Positions 38,381 to 57,880 are shown, counted from the stretch's first letter. The stretch is 64,000 nucleotides of DNA from a virus (IMGVR_UViG_3300035698_009139); one strand, 5' to 3'. Notes: generated by a model not told the origin, from the sequence alone. Numbers and translations: made by a program.

Positions 38381-38466
38381 TTCAACGTTGTAAGTGCTGT
38401 TCTAATAGGTAAGATACCGGGATACCGGTGATGGGGGTTCGATTCCCCCGGCGATGAAACGTTGAG
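38381..38466 (+). ncRNA. anticodon-less tRNA-like RNA
   Basis: D arm, CCGG-GATA-CCGG in place of the anticodon arm, GGGGG-TTCGATT-CCCCC T arm, TCAACGTT/AACGTTGA outer stem. Confidence 0.6.
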
Positions 38467-39321: not shown

Positions 39322-39475
39322 AAGGTTGGCGAGGTGAATGCGCCCATGATCTATATCACACCAGGGATCCTTAATGTGATGTTCGCCATGGTCTACGTAA
39401 GTGGAGGCATGTTTCACCGCTCCTGGGTTCGATCGCCAGGAGAGCAGGTTCGACTCCTGTCGCCCGCATTATTAT

Positions 39476-39547
39476 GCGAGTATCGTCTAAGTTAGGACGG
39501 CGTCCCTTTGAGGGCGTTATGGAGTATCGAATCTTCTACTCGCACCA
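39476..39547 (+). ncRNA. non-canonical tRNA-like RNA B (same class as 39251)
   Basis: GCGAGTA/TACTCGC acceptor plus ACCA; D and T loops identical to RNA A. Confidence 0.65.
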
Positions 39548-40784: not shown

Positions 40785-41800
40785 ATCGACAGACACAAAA
40801 CCGACTTTCCTTTGTCATGGACTTCGTAGTGAATGTACTGGATCCGTAACCAGATGTCTGTTAGAATCGGCAGTTTGCAGTCAGTCTGCCTCCTCTCACT
40901 AGCTTCGGCTTGAGGAAATCAAACACTGACCTGAGAGTAGTAATAGTAGAGTAATGGCGGTATGACGTCATTAGGATAACTGCAGCAATGCAGCCAAAGT
41001 TAGGACTTCACAGCCTAGCGCCAGAAATGGCCCTTTCATACAAGCTCAGATCTCCTGGCGACAGGTTATCACCGAAGGGTGGTAATAAGATCAGACAGTC
41101 AGCTGTGTGTCCGAAAGGATACTCCCCAGGCCATCCGGTGAGGGGGAAGCGGCCCGCAAGCTGCACCGCAGATGCAAACTGACCGAAGATTGATGATTAA
41201 TGAGTAGCCATAACAAGAGCACGAGCGATTTCAAGTAAGTGCAAGTGGCAGGACAATCGGTGATGGAATACCCCTTCTTAGGAATGTGGTGTTACTGATT
41301 CGAGAAGGACAGCGGAGTACCTGGGAGGGGAAAGGCAAGACGGTGTGTTGTATTTTGTCGGTAACAACCGGCGAAGCAACTGAGACAGCACATCGCAGTG
41401 ATTTCTAAGAAGCTCGTGGAGAGCATCTGCCTTTAGCAGAAGTGGTGGTTCGATCCTACCTCTTTATTTAAAACGCAAAGCCTGTCTCAGTACGTTGTTA
41501 AAGTCGTCTAATCCTAGAATCCTCGGATAATCTAGGTTGCGGATCCTCGCAAGGGAAAAGCAATTGATGGCCAGAAGGTCGGAAACTTCTAGCGGAGTTG
41601 TACTGCTCGCAAGGCAGACGGTTCGAAGGCTGTTGAGTAGCAACGTGCGATAAGTGAAATGCCACACTTTAAAAAAGGCGACGTTGTTCGCAGACTGCCC
41701 AGATCCTCGCGGAGGGGTAGTGGATAACCGGTTAACCTAGATTGCCAATTTAGGGTACGACTGAAGGTGCGGACGTGAAACGTGTAATCTCAGCGTTCTA
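40785..41800 (+). ncRNA. GOLLD-like giant structured RNA
   Basis: About 1 kb with no credible ORF; many GNRA/UUCG hairpins; ACTGAGACAG (41379) pairs CTGTCTCAGT (41482); AAAAAAGGC and terminal TAATCTCAG motifs recalled from GOLLD; lies among tRNAs. Confidence 0.7.
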
Positions 41801-42662: not shown

Positions 42663-42668
42663 AAATAT

Positions 42669-42753
42669 GCGTCGGGAAAGTTAGTGGTTCTAGCACGAGG
42701 CCTGTAAAGCCTTTCTCTTCGGGGGAGAAGTTCGATTCTTCACCGGCGCACCA
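42669..42753 (+). tRNA. tRNA-Tyr(GTA)
   Basis: Type II variable arm, ACCA. Confidence 0.85.
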
Positions 42754-42759
42754 AACGAC

Positions 42760-42904
42760 GGACTGTTGGCGGAAGAGGCAGACGCACTGGGTTGATAGCC
42801 TGGGTTAGATACCACACGGGTCGGCATAGAAAACCTATCGTAATATCTCGAGTAAAAGCGGCAGTTAGTTTATGTTCTTGGAGGTTCGAATCCTTCACAG
42901 TCCA
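42760..42904 (+). ncRNA. tRNA-like RNA with large insertion in the anticodon arm
   Basis: GGACTGT/ACAGTCC acceptor, Leu-like D arm, GGAGG-TTCGAAT-CCTTC T arm. Confidence 0.65.
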
Positions 42905-42991
42905 CTATTACATCAGAAGTAAAACGAGGCGTTACAGCACGCCTATCCACAGAACGCGACGGCGCGCGGCCGGTAATCAGTCTGCGGAGGA

Positions 42992-43092
42992 CTCGCACAG
43001 CACACAGAAACGGGAAACGTTGGTTCGAATCCAACTGCAGCGGCGTAAGGTCGTTGTATCGTCTAGTGGCTTAGGACGCCCGTATGTGCGAG
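42992..43092 (+). ncRNA. circularly permuted tRNA mimic 1 (YrlA-like Y RNA)
   Basis: Order T arm, closed acceptor stem, D arm; ends pair through the extended anticodon stem. Confidence 0.75.
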
Positions 43093-43111
43093 AAGGATGT
43101 AATGATATTCA

Positions 43112-43196
43112 GCATCGAGGAAGGGGAGGTAGTGGTTCGAGTCCGCTTATTGCTACGGCGATATAGTCCAATTGGTAGGGCGCCCCGTGTCGATGT
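43112..43196 (+). ncRNA. circularly permuted tRNA mimic 2 (YrlA-like Y RNA)
   Basis: Same topology; GCATCGA/TCGATGT terminal stem. Confidence 0.75.
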
Positions 43197-43203
43197 AAAC
43201 AAT

Positions 43204-46021: not shown

Positions 46022-46291
46022 ATGAGCACTCTGACCAAAAATTATGCTATCTTGGTTTCGTACCGGGACAACAGCTATCGCTGGAGCACAACTAGGTTTG
46101 AGGCGAGCGTCGCTGATGATTTCATCACTAGAGTGTTTGACTCACTTGTGCAGTTGCCAGATATCCGCGAGGTGAAAATCTTCGAGGTGGCCGCCCGCCC
46201 AATGTTTCACACACATGCAACATTTGAAGAAGATCTCACATCAGACGCAATGATGGAGAAATTAGAGATATTGAAAGGATCATTACAATGA
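46022..46291 (+). CDS. hypothetical protein
   Basis: GAGG RBS. Confidence 0.55.
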   Translation: MSTLTKNYAILVSYRDNSYRWSTTRFEASVADDFITRVFDSLVQLPDIREVKIFEVAARPMFHTHATFEEDLTSDAMMEKLEILKGSLQ

Positions 46292-46752
46292 ACGTCCACC
46301 AATTCTATTTCGTCAGAGATGATCTCGAGTCAATGAATCCCGGCAAGATGGCCGCACAGGTATCGCACGCCGCAGCTATGTTGGCTGAGCGTGGGCTGTG
46401 CTCAGGTAATTCTACGTTCTATGATTTATACAAGTCGTGGATGAATCAGACGACAGATAACTTCGGGGTCGCTCACACGAGGGCCGCTGATCCTCATGAT
46501 ATTTTTGACATGGGTGCTGATCTGGATGATGACTATGAATCCCAGTTGTCGGCGATCATCAACAATGCTACCTTAGAGGGAGCGGTACCTAACATTATTG
46601 ATGTTACTGTAACAGACCCGGAATATCCATTGAAAGATGGCCGCACGGTTCATCACTTTCCAATGCAGACTGTTCGGGCCGTGATGTTTGATGTAGACAA
46701 ACATCCTACACTCGGCGCCGCATTCCAGAAGATGTCCTACAGGCATCCATAA
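46288..46752 (+). CDS. peptidyl-tRNA hydrolase, Pth2 family
   Basis: VRDDLESMNPGKMAAQVSHAA; VTDP. Confidence 0.75.
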   Translation: MNVHQFYFVRDDLESMNPGKMAAQVSHAAAMLAERGLCSGNSTFYDLYKSWMNQTTDNFGVAHTRAADPHDIFDMGADLDDDYESQLSAIINNATLEGAVPNIIDVTVTDPEYPLKDGRTVHHFPMQTVRAVMFDVDKHPTLGAAFQKMSYRHP

Positions 46753-46756
46753 CAAT

Positions 46757-46831
46757 CTCCCTGTCGTCTAGTGGCTAGGACGCTACCCTCTCAAGGTAGA
46801 AACGTCGGTTCAAGTCCGATCAGGGGGCCCA
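46757..46831 (+). tRNA. tRNA-Glu(CTC)
   Basis: Cloverleaf, CCA. Confidence 0.88.
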
Positions 46832-46877: not shown

Positions 46878-46961
46878 GGGCCGCTGAAGCTGAAACTAAG
46901 TCTGGGACAGGAGCGGTCTTTTAAACCGTATGCGTGGGTTCGATTCCCCGGCGGCCCCCCA
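46878..46961 (+). tRNA. tRNA-Lys(TTT) with enlarged atypical D region
   Basis: GCGGT-CTTTTAA-ACCGT; GGGCCGC/GCGGCCC; CCA. Confidence 0.7.
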
Positions 46962-46967
46962 AACAAT

Positions 46968-47042
46968 CGCCGGCGTAGTGTAATGGTAACACGACAGGTT
47001 GTGGTCCTGTTAATGAGAGTTCGATCCTCTCCGTCGCGACCA
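46968..47042 (+). tRNA. tRNA-His(GTG), A73, no G-1
   Basis: ACAGG-TTGTGGT-CCTGT, ACCA. Confidence 0.85.
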
Positions 47043-49128: not shown

Positions 49129-49725
49129 ATGAGATTCATCGGAGACATACACGGCAACTTTATGCAATACTGTGGGATCGCCCAACAGGTGGGTCACTCA
49201 GTGCAGGTTGGCGACTATGGCGCCGGGTTTTCATATCCGTATCCTGAATTCGATGAAAACAATCACCGATTCATCCGAGGCAATCACGATAGTCCGGAGG
49301 AGTGCAGGCGACATCCAAATTGGATTAACGATGGTCGCGTTGAAGAAACGATTCACTCCGGCGCAATCATGTATGTGGGTGGTGCTAGGTCAATTGATCA
49401 AGAGTGGCGCACTGAAGGTCACAACTGGTGGCCTGAAGAAGAGCTGTCGATAGCAGAGCTTGGGCGGATGGTCGACAGGTACATCGACCTGAAACCGGCC
49501 GTGATGGTTACACACGATTGCCCAGAAGCAGTTGTTCATCCATTCTTCGGAAGTTTAGCAGTATCAGAAGATACGCGCACCCGGCAAGCATTTCAGTCGA
49601 TGTGGGAAGCTCACAAGCCAGATCTTTGGATCTTTGGCCACTGGCATTACGCAGTTGACCAGAAAGTATTAGGTACAAGATTTATATGCCTAGATCAGTT
49701 AACATATGTTGACCTCGACTTATAA
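49129..49725 (+). CDS. calcineurin-like metallophosphoesterase
   Basis: GDIHG, VGD, RGNHD, THDCP, FGHWH. Confidence 0.88.
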   Translation: MRFIGDIHGNFMQYCGIAQQVGHSVQVGDYGAGFSYPYPEFDENNHRFIRGNHDSPEECRRHPNWINDGRVEETIHSGAIMYVGGARSIDQEWRTEGHNWWPEEELSIAELGRMVDRYIDLKPAVMVTHDCPEAVVHPFFGSLAVSEDTRTRQAFQSMWEAHKPDLWIFGHWHYAVDQKVLGTRFICLDQLTYVDLDL

Positions 49726-51784: not shown

Positions 51785-51941
51785 TTGAAGTCGCTTGTCC
51801 CTATTAATGGGCGGCTCCATAACGAGACTAGTTCCATGACCTGTAGGGGGTCGCAAAAGAATTCCGGGCTCATAATCCGGAGATGCGGGGTTGGTATGCC
51901 CGCCGGCGCTTCGGCGTCGTAGTTCAAGGTCTCTAGGAACA
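51785..51941 (+). ncRNA. circularly permuted tRNA(CAT) mimic with UUCG-sealed acceptor stem
   Basis: GAAT, CCGGG-CTCATAA-TCCGG, AGAT, GCGGG/CCCGC, CGGCGC-TTCG-GCGTCG, TA, GTTC. Confidence 0.65.
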
Positions 51942-52676: not shown

Positions 52677-53351
52677 ATGTTACATAAGCGATTTAGTATG
52701 AACAAACTCGGCCGCGACTTTGTCGTTGGCGACCTTCACGGTTGCTTTGGCCAATTGTTGGACGAGCTGAGTAAGATCGAGTTCAATGACCGGGCGGATC
52801 GGATGTTCTCTGTCGGTGATCTGATTGATCGCGGCAAGGAGAATATCCAATGCGCCGAACTGCTGCACGCACCCTGGTTTTTCTCAGTCAAAGGCAACCA
52901 CGAGGACATGTTCGTGGCTGCAATGAATTCAAACGCCGGCACACACGACATGATGATGTATTTTCAAAATGGCGGCAACTGGGTATACGATGAGTTGGAC
53001 AATGCTATCAATGCCCCAGCTGACAAAGCACAGTGGATCGCCGAATTCGTCAGATTGTTTTCACAACTACCGCTGTCAATCACCGTCCCTACGAGTAACG
53101 GACTGGTCGGTATCTGTCATGCACAGCCTCCAGAGGACTGGGAGCAGGTGCAGTTCGAAACAGAAGCTAAGCTGCTATGGGCAAGACAAGTTGTCCAAAT
53201 GACGGCTCCGATCTTTCGCGTCGACAATGTGTGGAAGACGTACCACGGCCATACACCACTCGATGAGAAAAAAGTCGTCGGCAATGCACACTTTATTGAC
53301 ACCGGCGCTGTGTTCGATGGTGGTAAGCTGACCGTTGAAAGGATTCACTGA
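52677..53351 (+). CDS. Ser/Thr protein phosphatase (lambda NinI/PrpA family)
   Basis: GDLHG, VGDLIDRG, GNHE, HGHT, IDTG. Confidence 0.9.
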   Translation: MLHKRFSMNKLGRDFVVGDLHGCFGQLLDELSKIEFNDRADRMFSVGDLIDRGKENIQCAELLHAPWFFSVKGNHEDMFVAAMNSNAGTHDMMMYFQNGGNWVYDELDNAINAPADKAQWIAEFVRLFSQLPLSITVPTSNGLVGICHAQPPEDWEQVQFETEAKLLWARQVVQMTAPIFRVDNVWKTYHGHTPLDEKKVVGNAHFIDTGAVFDGGKLTVERIH

Positions 53352-57379: not shown

Positions 57380-57880
57380 ATGTACGACATAATTTGCGAC
57401 ATCGACGGAACAATTGCCGATATCGGACACCGTCTGCACCACATCGAAAACAAGCCGACCAACTGGCCCGAGTTTAACAAACTATGCGTTGACGACGCAC
57501 CAATTTGGCCAACAATCAAAACAGTTGGTGCTATGTGGCGCATGGGTGCTCGTATCATCATGGTCTCGGCGCGCAAAGAGCATCAGCGTGATATAACCGG
57601 CAACTGGATGGAGACATTTGGGATGCATGATGTCAACGATTCATACGCTGAGCCCGCAATGTTCAAACCGGCCATAAAGTTTCTGTACGAGCGGATGTAT
57701 ATGCGGCCGGACGATAACAATCAGAAGGACGATGAGTTCAAATCGGACACCCTTGTGGATATCATTGCAGACGGTTACCGCCCATCTGTTGTGTTCGATG
57801 ATCGGACCGGCGTAGTTAAGATGTGGCGGGCAAAAGGCCTGTTCGTGTTCGACACAAACCAATCTGGAAAGGAATATTGA
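57380..57880 (+). CDS. HAD-family PNK 3'-phosphatase-like protein
   Basis: DIDGTIAD, VSAR, MRP.D...D..FK, FDDR..VV.MWR. Confidence 0.8.
   Translation: MYDIICDIDGTIADIGHRLHHIENKPTNWPEFNKLCVDDAPIWPTIKTVGAMWRMGARIIMVSARKEHQRDITGNWMETFGMHDVNDSYAEPAMFKPAIKFLYERMYMRPDDNNQKDDEFKSDTLVDIIADGYRPSVVFDDRTGVVKMWRAKGLFVFDTNQSGKEY

Follow-up and report, generated by a model that had tools for sequence, protein, structure and literature searches.

The window analyzed here, a 64,000-nt stretch of the virus IMGVR_UViG_3300035698_009139, carries at 42906-43199 of its + strand two tandem tRNA-shaped elements. In both, the lowest-energy fold is a permuted cloverleaf composed of a T arm, a loop-capped acceptor hairpin, and a D arm, whose ends exit via the anticodon stem. 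Read from 5' to 3', each consists of the 3' strand of the anticodon stem, a 4-nt variable loop, the T arm, the 3' strand of the acceptor, a short cap, the 5' strand of the acceptor, two nucleotides (positions 8-9), the D arm, G26, and the 5' strand of the anticodon stem. A short loop seals the acceptor end, and the chain opens at the would-be anticodon loop, with no anticodon and with the ends held in an extra closing stem. The tertiary signatures of tRNA are intact in both (U8, A14, G18G19, the T-loop sequence UUCGA(A/G)U, and G26/A44), and the Levitt pair is compensated between them, being G15-C48 in element 1 and A15-U48 in element 2. The minimum free energy (MFE) is -36.0 kcal/mol for element 1 (42993-43093; z = -2.0) and -33.0 kcal/mol for element 2 (43112-43199; z = -2.8). 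A first-pass annotation had described the pair as permuted tRNA mimics with the topology of the bacterial Y RNA YrlA; its helices were all recovered where it had placed them, each in the MFE fold, the order of parts matches the YrlA design (PMC4201824), and element 2 aligns to the full YrlA model. Taken with their closing stems, the elements form unit 1, a tRNA-Glu-type body on a long two-tier stem, and unit 2, a generic YrlA-type body on a 7-bp stem. Their features are as follows.

42906-43104, + strand: unit 1, the whole of putative Y-like RNA 1, an outer handle around two leader hairpins, an inner stem, and a tRNA-Glu-like module
42911-42919, + strand: 5' handle motif of unit 1, CAUC-A-GAAG, counterpart of 43113-43123 in unit 2
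42927-42942, + strand: leader hairpin GGCGU/ACGCC, which holds the first ACAGCAC (42934-42940)
42992-42999, + strand: inner closing stem, 5' strand, pairing with 43085-43092 (8-bp perfect inverted repeat I4; MFE fold)
43010-43083, + strand: element 1 core, a sealed permuted tRNA-Glu-like module (MFE fold, score with model R2, covariation in relatives)
43010-14/43079-83, + strand: element 1 anticodon-like stem (MFE fold)
43015-18, + strand: element 1 variable loop, AAAC (MFE fold)
43019-35, + strand: element 1 T arm (MFE fold)
43036-58, + strand: element 1 acceptor hairpin, 9 bp with a GUAAG cap
43059-60, + strand: element 1 U8-C9 (MFE fold)
43061-77, + strand: element 1 D arm (MFE fold)
43085-43092, + strand: inner closing stem, 3' strand, pairing with 42992-42999
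43096-43104, + strand: outer handle of unit 1, 3' strand, GAUGUAAUG, which contains the common GAUGUAA
43112-43199, + strand: unit 2, putative Y-like RNA 2, of the classical YrlA type (MFE fold, Rfam YrlA, R2)
43112-18/43190-96, + strand: closing stem of unit 2, 7 bp, with a GGAA junction to the module
43123-43186, + strand: module of unit 2, with the T arm at 43131-47, the acceptor hairpin at 43148-63 (either 6 bp capped by the tetraloop UACG or 7 bp whose strands are separated by AC), and the D arm at 43166-81
43192-98, + strand: 3' GAUGUAA of unit 2, common to unit 1

The module of element 1 stands as first annotated, but its probable extent is greater. In the fold of the whole 298 nt, 42906-42914 pairs with 43096-43104 (9 bp; inverted repeat I3) and encloses element 1 together with an 85-nt leader bearing two hairpins; unit 1 probably extends to 42906-43104, starting 1-2 nt past the upstream tRNA-like gene (42760-42904). 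Judged by motifs, the closing stem of element 2 corresponds to this outer stem rather than to the inner one. The leader alone (42906-42992) gives no significant fold (z = -1.3 to -1.6). ACAGCAC, already seen twice in this leader by the first-pass annotation, was found at 42934 and 42997 and is locally enriched (2 within 64 nt vs 29 occurrences of ACAGCAM on both strands of the whole 64 kb); the second copy (42997-43003) overlaps the inner closing stem. Separately, GGACUCG (42989-42995), 5' of the inner stem, is complementary to CGAGUCC (43137-43143) in the T stem-loop of element 2 (I2, an inverted repeat with 90% over 10 nt); this may be an inter-unit contact or chance.

Both units share the handle CAUC-N1-3-GAAG at the 5' side and GAUGUAA at the 3' side, which unit 1 carries in its outer stem and unit 2 in its closing stem. 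The pattern CATC-N1-3-GAAG...GATGTAA occurs just twice on both strands of the 64 kb, at 42911-43102 and 43113-43198; it was defined post hoc from both units, and about 0.11 combinations are expected per shuffled window. The shared handle argues for a real outer stem, for two separable units, and for one partner that reads both. The same regular expression had no match in all fetched loci (0.64 Mb). The handle pattern CATCGAGGAAG-N50-80-GATGTAA had 52 matches in viral contigs, none with a T loop, and all were set aside as chance.

The sealed module of element 1 is not confined to this phage. Degenerate patterns built from its T loop and D loop recovered the same module in 2 viral and 5 metagenome contigs, and a second pattern added about 25 IMG/VR phages along with 8 false positives made of ordinary tandem tRNAs, which served as controls; relatives of the element 1 type thus come from about 30 phage contigs. 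The alignments were fitted to a model with the D arm fixed by the patterns, leaving the D-arm pairs uninformative and the T, acceptor, and anticodon-like stems free to vary; they gave the following pairing.

Alignment A4, 7 sequences (phage or metagenome): 95.3% of cells paired, 32-53% with slid partners, both sides changed in 16/23 pairs
Alignment A5, 12 sequences: 95.1% of cells paired, 37-49% with slid partners, both sides changed in 18/23 pairs
Alignment A6, 16 sequences including TROVE-linked loci: 95.7% of cells paired, 35-50% with slid partners, both sides changed in 18/23 pairs

In A6, the acceptor hairpin, which is the feature separating a sealed mimic from two neighboring tRNAs, is 98% paired and covaries in 8 of its 9 pairs. 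About 30 other phage contigs repeat this architecture with compensatory substitutions, which excludes chance.

The body of element 1 and of its relatives is that of a tRNA-Glu. The nearest tRNA in the window is the phage tRNA-Glu(CUC) at 46757-46831, identical in U8-C9, the D arm, and the AAAC variable loop, and Glu accounts for 16 of the 30 best matches to element 1 among 323 phage tRNAs. Every stem of element 1 has diverged from tRNA-Glu(CUC) with compensation, and it is therefore not a recent duplicate. It fits a provisional phage Glu-type sealed module with a UC-GUC-UAGUGG..AGGAC-G D arm, an (A/G)AAC loop, a T arm, and a capped acceptor hairpin between the arms. The D arm of element 2 is the generic UAG(C/U)YC-A..UGGUA-GRGC, as in classical YrlA, and the isotype of its body had no clear match among the compared phage tRNAs. 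A non-permuted relative of the Glu-type body also exists (L027 957-1159; JAANMV010000033.1), with the D arm and AAAC loop kept, a normal acceptor stem, and a long hairpin in place of the anticodon loop.

Covariance models separate these elements from ordinary tandem tRNAs. With R1, built from element 1 alone, relatives score 37-62 bits and tandem tRNAs 20-37 bits. R2 was built from TROVE-linked loci only and contains no window sequence; in the window, it ranks element 1 first (74.9 bits, E = 1e-17) and element 2 second (43.4 bits, E = 2e-9), followed by a tandem tRNA-like pair at 26.2 bits. The Rfam YrlA model (RF02553) matches element 2 at 30.6 bits (E = 1.6e-4 on 801 nt, model positions 1-114, middle helix deleted). 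It is important to consider that tandem tRNAs themselves give weak YrlA matches, in 13 of 14 control genomes at E <= 1, as the authors of the family cautioned (PMC4201824), and such matches are therefore not diagnostic by themselves.

TROVE, the domain of the Ro60 protein (PF05731), is present in 13 of the 27 module-bearing virus records and in 0 of the 8 tandem-tRNA controls (Fisher p = 0.014). The module lies within about 1 kb of a TROVE gene and on the same strand in eight records (G011, G014, G018, G020, G023, G024, G025, and G032); in G026, the distance is 5 kb. The three phages G007, G009, and G017, all of 345-465 kb, have it in a tRNA island more than 100 kb from TROVE. Furthermore, a second element follows the Glu-type module 70-150 nt downstream at L064, L069, L085, and L092, the order seen in the window, with a sub-threshold full-model YrlA match of 33-47 bits; at L079, the second element is upstream instead. 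The tandem with a YrlA-type element is thus found in at least 4 of the 8 TROVE-adjacent records, and Glu-type plus YrlA-type is a recurrent tandem beside Ro60 genes.

In these relatives, too, the units within one phage share a closing handle. It reads NGGGUCG ... UUAUCCN at L069 and L092, GYGGUG..UACUUCG ... CUGUUCCC at L064, L085, and L033, and a 7-bp stem followed by (A/U)CAGCA(A/U) in L036, G008, and G031. The presumed Ro60 site of YrlA is GNCGAAN0-1G, near the 5' end in the end-to-end stem (PMC4201824), and the second unit of L092 reads GUCGAACG, an exact instance of it. Pfam TROVE is missing from G008 and G031, but both have a gene for a DUF2828/DUF7788 protein close to the RNA array; DUF7788 weakly matches two TROVE open reading frames (ORFs) in their C-terminal part, a hint that this protein may be a Ro60-like relative. 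Each of these two genomes holds about 8-9 cassettes of the 7-bp stem and (A/U)CAGCA(A/U) (G031 at L093 5700-9250; G008 at L094 1300-7800). In G031, a 582-aa DUF2828 and DUF7788 protein lies 1.4 kb downstream of the array (L093 10640-12385), and in G008, the DUF7788 ORF is about 9 kb downstream of the module.

Unit 1 resembles these cassettes in having ACAGCAC twice, once just 5' of the junction to the Glu-type module, and cassettes at L017, L060, and L091 carry ACAGCA(A/U) before the same module at the position of one of these copies. There, the motif is preceded in unit 1 by GGAC-UCGC, much like AGGAC-GCUC in G031, but it overlaps the inner stem and is limited to unit 1, whereas in the (A/U)CAGCA(A/U) cassettes it is unpaired and follows the 7-bp stem after 2-4 nt. 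Units 1 and 2 also differ from these cassettes in sharing another handle and in lacking a DUF2828/DUF7788 homologue in the window. The UUACUUCG handle of the G006, G007, and L033 RNAs shows no enrichment in the window. At L033 (metagenome contig Ga0326727_10510512), tandem sealed tRNA mimics at 188-323 and 372-501, one generic and one Glu-type, each lie inside a near-identical long handle, CCGGUGGUGUAGGGAACGGUUACUUCGCC ... GUCCGUACCCGCUUGUUCCCCGG, with a third handle copy starting near 955. The AG(U/A)UACUUCG handle is common to several RNAs, among them L050 1038-1090 and 1487-1559, that lie in the tRNA islands of the two large phages G007 (227-241 kb) and G006 (102-118 kb); the TROVE gene of G007 is about 100 kb from its RNAs with this handle.

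Because the same two designs occur together beside Ro60 genes in other phages, the most likely reading of 42906-43199 is a tandem of two small RNAs, both Y-RNA-like and of the YrlA class, and to this reading we assign a probability of about 0.62. Under this Y RNA reading, both RNAs would be excised from the long transcript of the tRNA island by the enzymes that trim the flanking tRNAs, with cuts at the end of the tRNA-like gene (about 42905) and by RNase P at tRNA-Cys (43204). The shared handle would then bind a single partner; a ring protein of the Ro60 type would be the likeliest, with its gene either in another part of the phage genome or in the host. The exposed tRNA-shaped domain may recruit a tRNA- or RNA-handling enzyme, by analogy with the Y RNA of Deinococcus and the Ro60 of phage phiLo. 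In Deinococcus, the precedent for this mechanism, Y RNA tethers the Ro60 protein Rsr to PNPase. The outcome could be a reshaping of RNA decay or tRNA surveillance during infection. Of the 7 complete genomes whose module is in a tRNA island, TROVE is encoded at another place in 3, and the chance that the window phage encodes its own Ro60-like gene would therefore be near one half.

Several observations weigh against the Y RNA reading. At curated cut-offs, Rfam calls nothing at 42906-43199. Element 2 reaches 30.6 bits with the YrlA model, whose gathering cut-off is 69, and element 1 has no match even at E <= 10. Candidates adjoining TROVE genes in other phages also reach just 33-47 bits, and the 69-bit cut-off is therefore strict for phage forms. 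At the place equivalent to GNCGAAN0-1G, unit 2 has AUCGAGG (5/7) and unit 1 has AUCAGAAG, neither of which matches. As already noted in the first pass, the window lacks a Ro60/TROVE gene: Pfam, PHROGs, and tblastn with a phage TROVE protein were all without a match, and the approximately 60 window ORFs scanned include no TROVE, DUF2828/DUF7788, vWA, DUF7873, or RtcB; tblastn of the window with the G031 DUF2828/DUF7788 protein was also negative. One criterion for YrlA is a same-strand Ro60 gene within about 4 kb, and here there is none within the 42.9 kb upstream or 20.8 kb downstream. Among complete module-bearing phage genomes, 7 of 13 lack Pfam TROVE and 6 of those also lack DUF7788, and Ro60 is therefore not obligatory for the module. 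At L013, L014, and L022, there is no closing stem past a 5-6 bp anticodon-like stem, and these RNAs thus offer no Ro60 site. In addition, element 1 was the source of the patterns and the model used to gather relatives, which biases the sample to its D arm.

Finally, no orthologue of this tandem or its handle was found by exact, pattern, or handle searches. Exact 35-36-nt pieces of both elements had no match in viral contigs, an element-2-specific pattern had 0 matches there, megablast of 10.7 kb against GenBank phages returned nothing, and blastn of the region gave tRNA-Leu matches only. The best relatives by DNA ligase (44-46% identical) have no homologous elements in their flanks or whole records; weak YrlA matches in these records proved to be ordinary tandem tRNAs.

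Compared with known systems, the units are closest to the YrlA RNAs of the Ro60/Rsr system. YrlA-like RNAs adjoin Ro60 in 254 bacteria and 22 phages (PMC4201824, Chen et al. 2014), and tandem YrlA/YrlB RNAs upstream of rsr are processed from a single precursor (PMC4201824). Further traits of the family are binding by Ro60/Rsr and tRNA modifications (D, pseudouridine). Both window elements possess the parts that define the YrlA domain, namely, the T arm, the closed acceptor-like stem-loop, the D arm, and the nucleotides of the tertiary pairs, with the elbow and Levitt pair preserved and end-to-end stems in both units. They are likewise two in tandem, and relatives of both module types lie close to TROVE, on the same strand, in other phages. 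With its 7-bp acceptor followed by A-C, element 2 resembles the YrlA of M. smegmatis, which is cut by RNase P and then receives CCA (PMC4201824). On the contrary, the YrlA scores, the replacement of GNCGAAN0-1G, the tRNA-Glu body of unit 1 with its 4-nt variable loop and two-tier stem, and the location in a phage tRNA island with no Ro60 gene in the window are all unlike YrlA.

In Thermus phage phiLo, the phage Ro60 binds the two Y-like RNAs Yrl1 and Yrl2 as well as host PNPase (PMC12135203, NAR 2025). As in the window, these are two tandem phage Y-like RNAs, for which a role as scaffold for Ro60 and host PNPase has been proposed. However, Yrl1/Yrl2 have a stem-bulge-stem form with a CGAA motif and lie directly upstream of the Ro60 gene, and the term tRNA-like is absent from the main text of that paper (PMC12135203), whereas the window units are built on full tRNA bodies, with CGAA found nowhere beyond the T loop, and do not adjoin a Ro60 gene.

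The most serious alternative, which we consider unlikely, is that the elements are Ro60-independent tRNA decoys, that is, sealed bodies without an anticodon, freed from the tRNA-island transcript, that sponge or bait a host protein reading the tRNA core. Proposed targets are a tRNA-targeting defense nuclease or sensor, GluRS, glutamyl-tRNA reductase, RNase P, and modification enzymes. The module of element 1 retains U11-A24, U13-G22, and a 4-nt variable loop, which together make up the "augmented D helix" read by Escherichia coli GluRS. The major determinants of GluRS are indeed in the augmented D stem (PMC2777447), and the retention of this tRNA-Glu core in unit 1 favors a decoy. So do the 6 of 13 complete module-bearing genomes with neither TROVE nor DUF7788, the many modules that stand bare between tRNAs with no handle (L013, L014, L022, and L071), and the location of the units in a tRNA island with no Ro60 gene in the window. 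The Glu-type D arm and AAAC loop are also kept while all other stems drift, but the conservation of the D arm is in part imposed by the search patterns. The close linkage of the same module to TROVE in 8-9 records speaks for Ro60, a long handle common to both units is needless for a bare decoy, and the proposal has no known target. In its narrower form, in which the Glu-bodied unit 1, and perhaps unit 2, acts without a Ro60-type protein as phage bait for a host factor reading the tRNA core, it is doubtful; if true, it would be a new class of RNA-based counter-defense or metabolic takeover inside phage tRNA islands.

It is improbable that 42906-43203 forms a single RNA of about 300 nt, a double tRNA mimic acting with a DUF7873 protein rather than Ro60. 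The two modules do lie in one stretch flanked by tRNA processing sites, no promoter or terminator separates them, and the 7-bp complementarity of 42989-42995 to the T loop of element 2 (I2) would suit one molecule. Nevertheless, the same handle recurs in a separate closing stem for each module, as expected of two separable units, Pfam scans of about 60 window ORFs gave no DUF7873 match, and we found no paper mentioning DUF7873.

A highly improbable explanation is that the region is nonfunctional debris of tRNA-gene rearrangement, or a dimeric-tRNA artifact in which a decayed 3' half stands beside the 5' half of another tRNA. The dense tRNA array and the weak YrlA-like matches given by tandem tRNAs in the control genomes would agree with it. 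Against this, the acceptor strands pair across a 4-5 nt cap in 9/9 and 7/7 pairs, the closing stems have 7-9 bp, and R2 separates the two elements (75 and 43 bits) from tandem tRNAs (<= 26 bits). The D arm of element 1 is that of the phage tRNA-Glu, yet all its stems have diverged with compensation, and the compensatory changes in every helix across about 30 phages exclude decay products.

Permuted tRNA genes are known from Cyanidioschyzon merolae, where the 3' half comes first, a short linker joins the acceptor strands, and maturation proceeds via a circular intermediate to decoding tRNAs. That the window holds such genes, with ends ligated and the acceptor cap removed, is hardly credible: a U33-like residue followed by GUG (element 1) or GUC (element 2) after the 5' anticodon-stem strand, the lack of a tRNA-Asp call by ARAGORN in the window, and a PNKP-type phosphatase at 57380-57880 would fit, but the tails of relatives vary in length (7, 10, and 5 nt) and sequence with no conserved U33/R37, the would-be anticodon-loop residues are paired in closing stems that lock the ends, the body of element 1 is Glu and not His, and no splicing-type endonuclease or RtcB was seen in the window. 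The non-permuted alternative raised in the first pass, with 43050-43162 as one intron-like tRNA made of the 5' half of element 1 and the 3' half of element 2, is disfavored as well, at 14.5 bits (E = 7.2) with no acceptor stem (5/7 acceptor pairs, three of them G-U), and by the sealed hairpin being 98% paired in relatives with 8 of 9 pairs covarying.

The host of the two elements is, by its gene content, a large uncultured T4-like phage. The window encodes a family B DNA polymerase (46% identical to those of T4-like cyanophages), UvsX/RecA, a DnaB-type helicase, a sliding clamp, and a clamp loader, along with ribonucleotide reductase, ThyX, NAMPT, and DNA ligase. Its tRNA island spans about 38.7-54.1 kb, entirely on the + strand, with 25 tRNAs called by ARAGORN and a few extra via Rfam. 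A promoter and terminator scan gave no signal delimiting either unit. Around the elements, the island holds the following.

41340-41796: GOLLD RNA (RF02032), 163 bits over the full model, 1.1 kb upstream of the elements and within the tRNA island
42760-42904, + strand: tRNA-like gene with an insert of about 70 nt (Rfam tRNA, 32.3 bits), immediately upstream of unit 1
43204, + strand: start of tRNA-Cys (ARAGORN), 4 nt after the end of unit 2

The tRNA-like gene at 42760-42904 has a perfect 7-bp acceptor and D and T arms, with the inserted nucleotides at the expected anticodon/variable region; it folds no better than shuffled sequence (z = +0.25). Preceding it, 42668-42750 is likely a tRNA-Tyr (anticodon GUA, long variable arm) that is absent from the ARAGORN calls and has a sub-threshold tRNA-Sec match alone in Rfam (33.2 bits). 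GTTCRANTC T-loop motifs with no called tRNA occur on the + strand at 38437, 39448, 43593, 45625, 46938, and 48303, and the island therefore appears to contain more tRNA-like elements; R2 gives 26 bits (39438-39503) and 24 bits (46925-46998) at two of these sites. A third rotated tRNA-like element at 51785-51941 has a UUCG-capped helix (GGCGC-UUCG-GCGUC) and lacks the CAUC..GAAG/GAUGUAA handle. Genes for RNA or tRNA handling are spread across the island and just past it, at 46288-46752, 49129-49725, 52677-53351, and 57380-57880; their products are a PTH2-like peptidyl-tRNA hydrolase, two calcineurin-like phosphoesterases, and a PNKP-type HAD phosphatase, the last being the one at 57380-57880.

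Y RNAs with tRNA-like domains have been known beside Ro60 in bacteria and a few phages, and their job is still unclear. What these results add is a Glu-bodied module that is invisible to the Rfam model and recurrent in many uncultured phages, found both beside Ro60 genes and in tRNA islands far from or without a Ro60 gene, together with a private closing handle in each phage that is common to its units. We found no paper on Glu-bodied sealed modules, per-phage handles, or DUF2828/DUF7873 partners. For annotation, these results imply that such elements escape tRNA finders, and Rfam at its cut-off. Two different tRNA bodies on one handle in a T4-like phage would offer a compact system for finding out which factor the tRNA-shaped domain brings in and if Ro60 is required at all.

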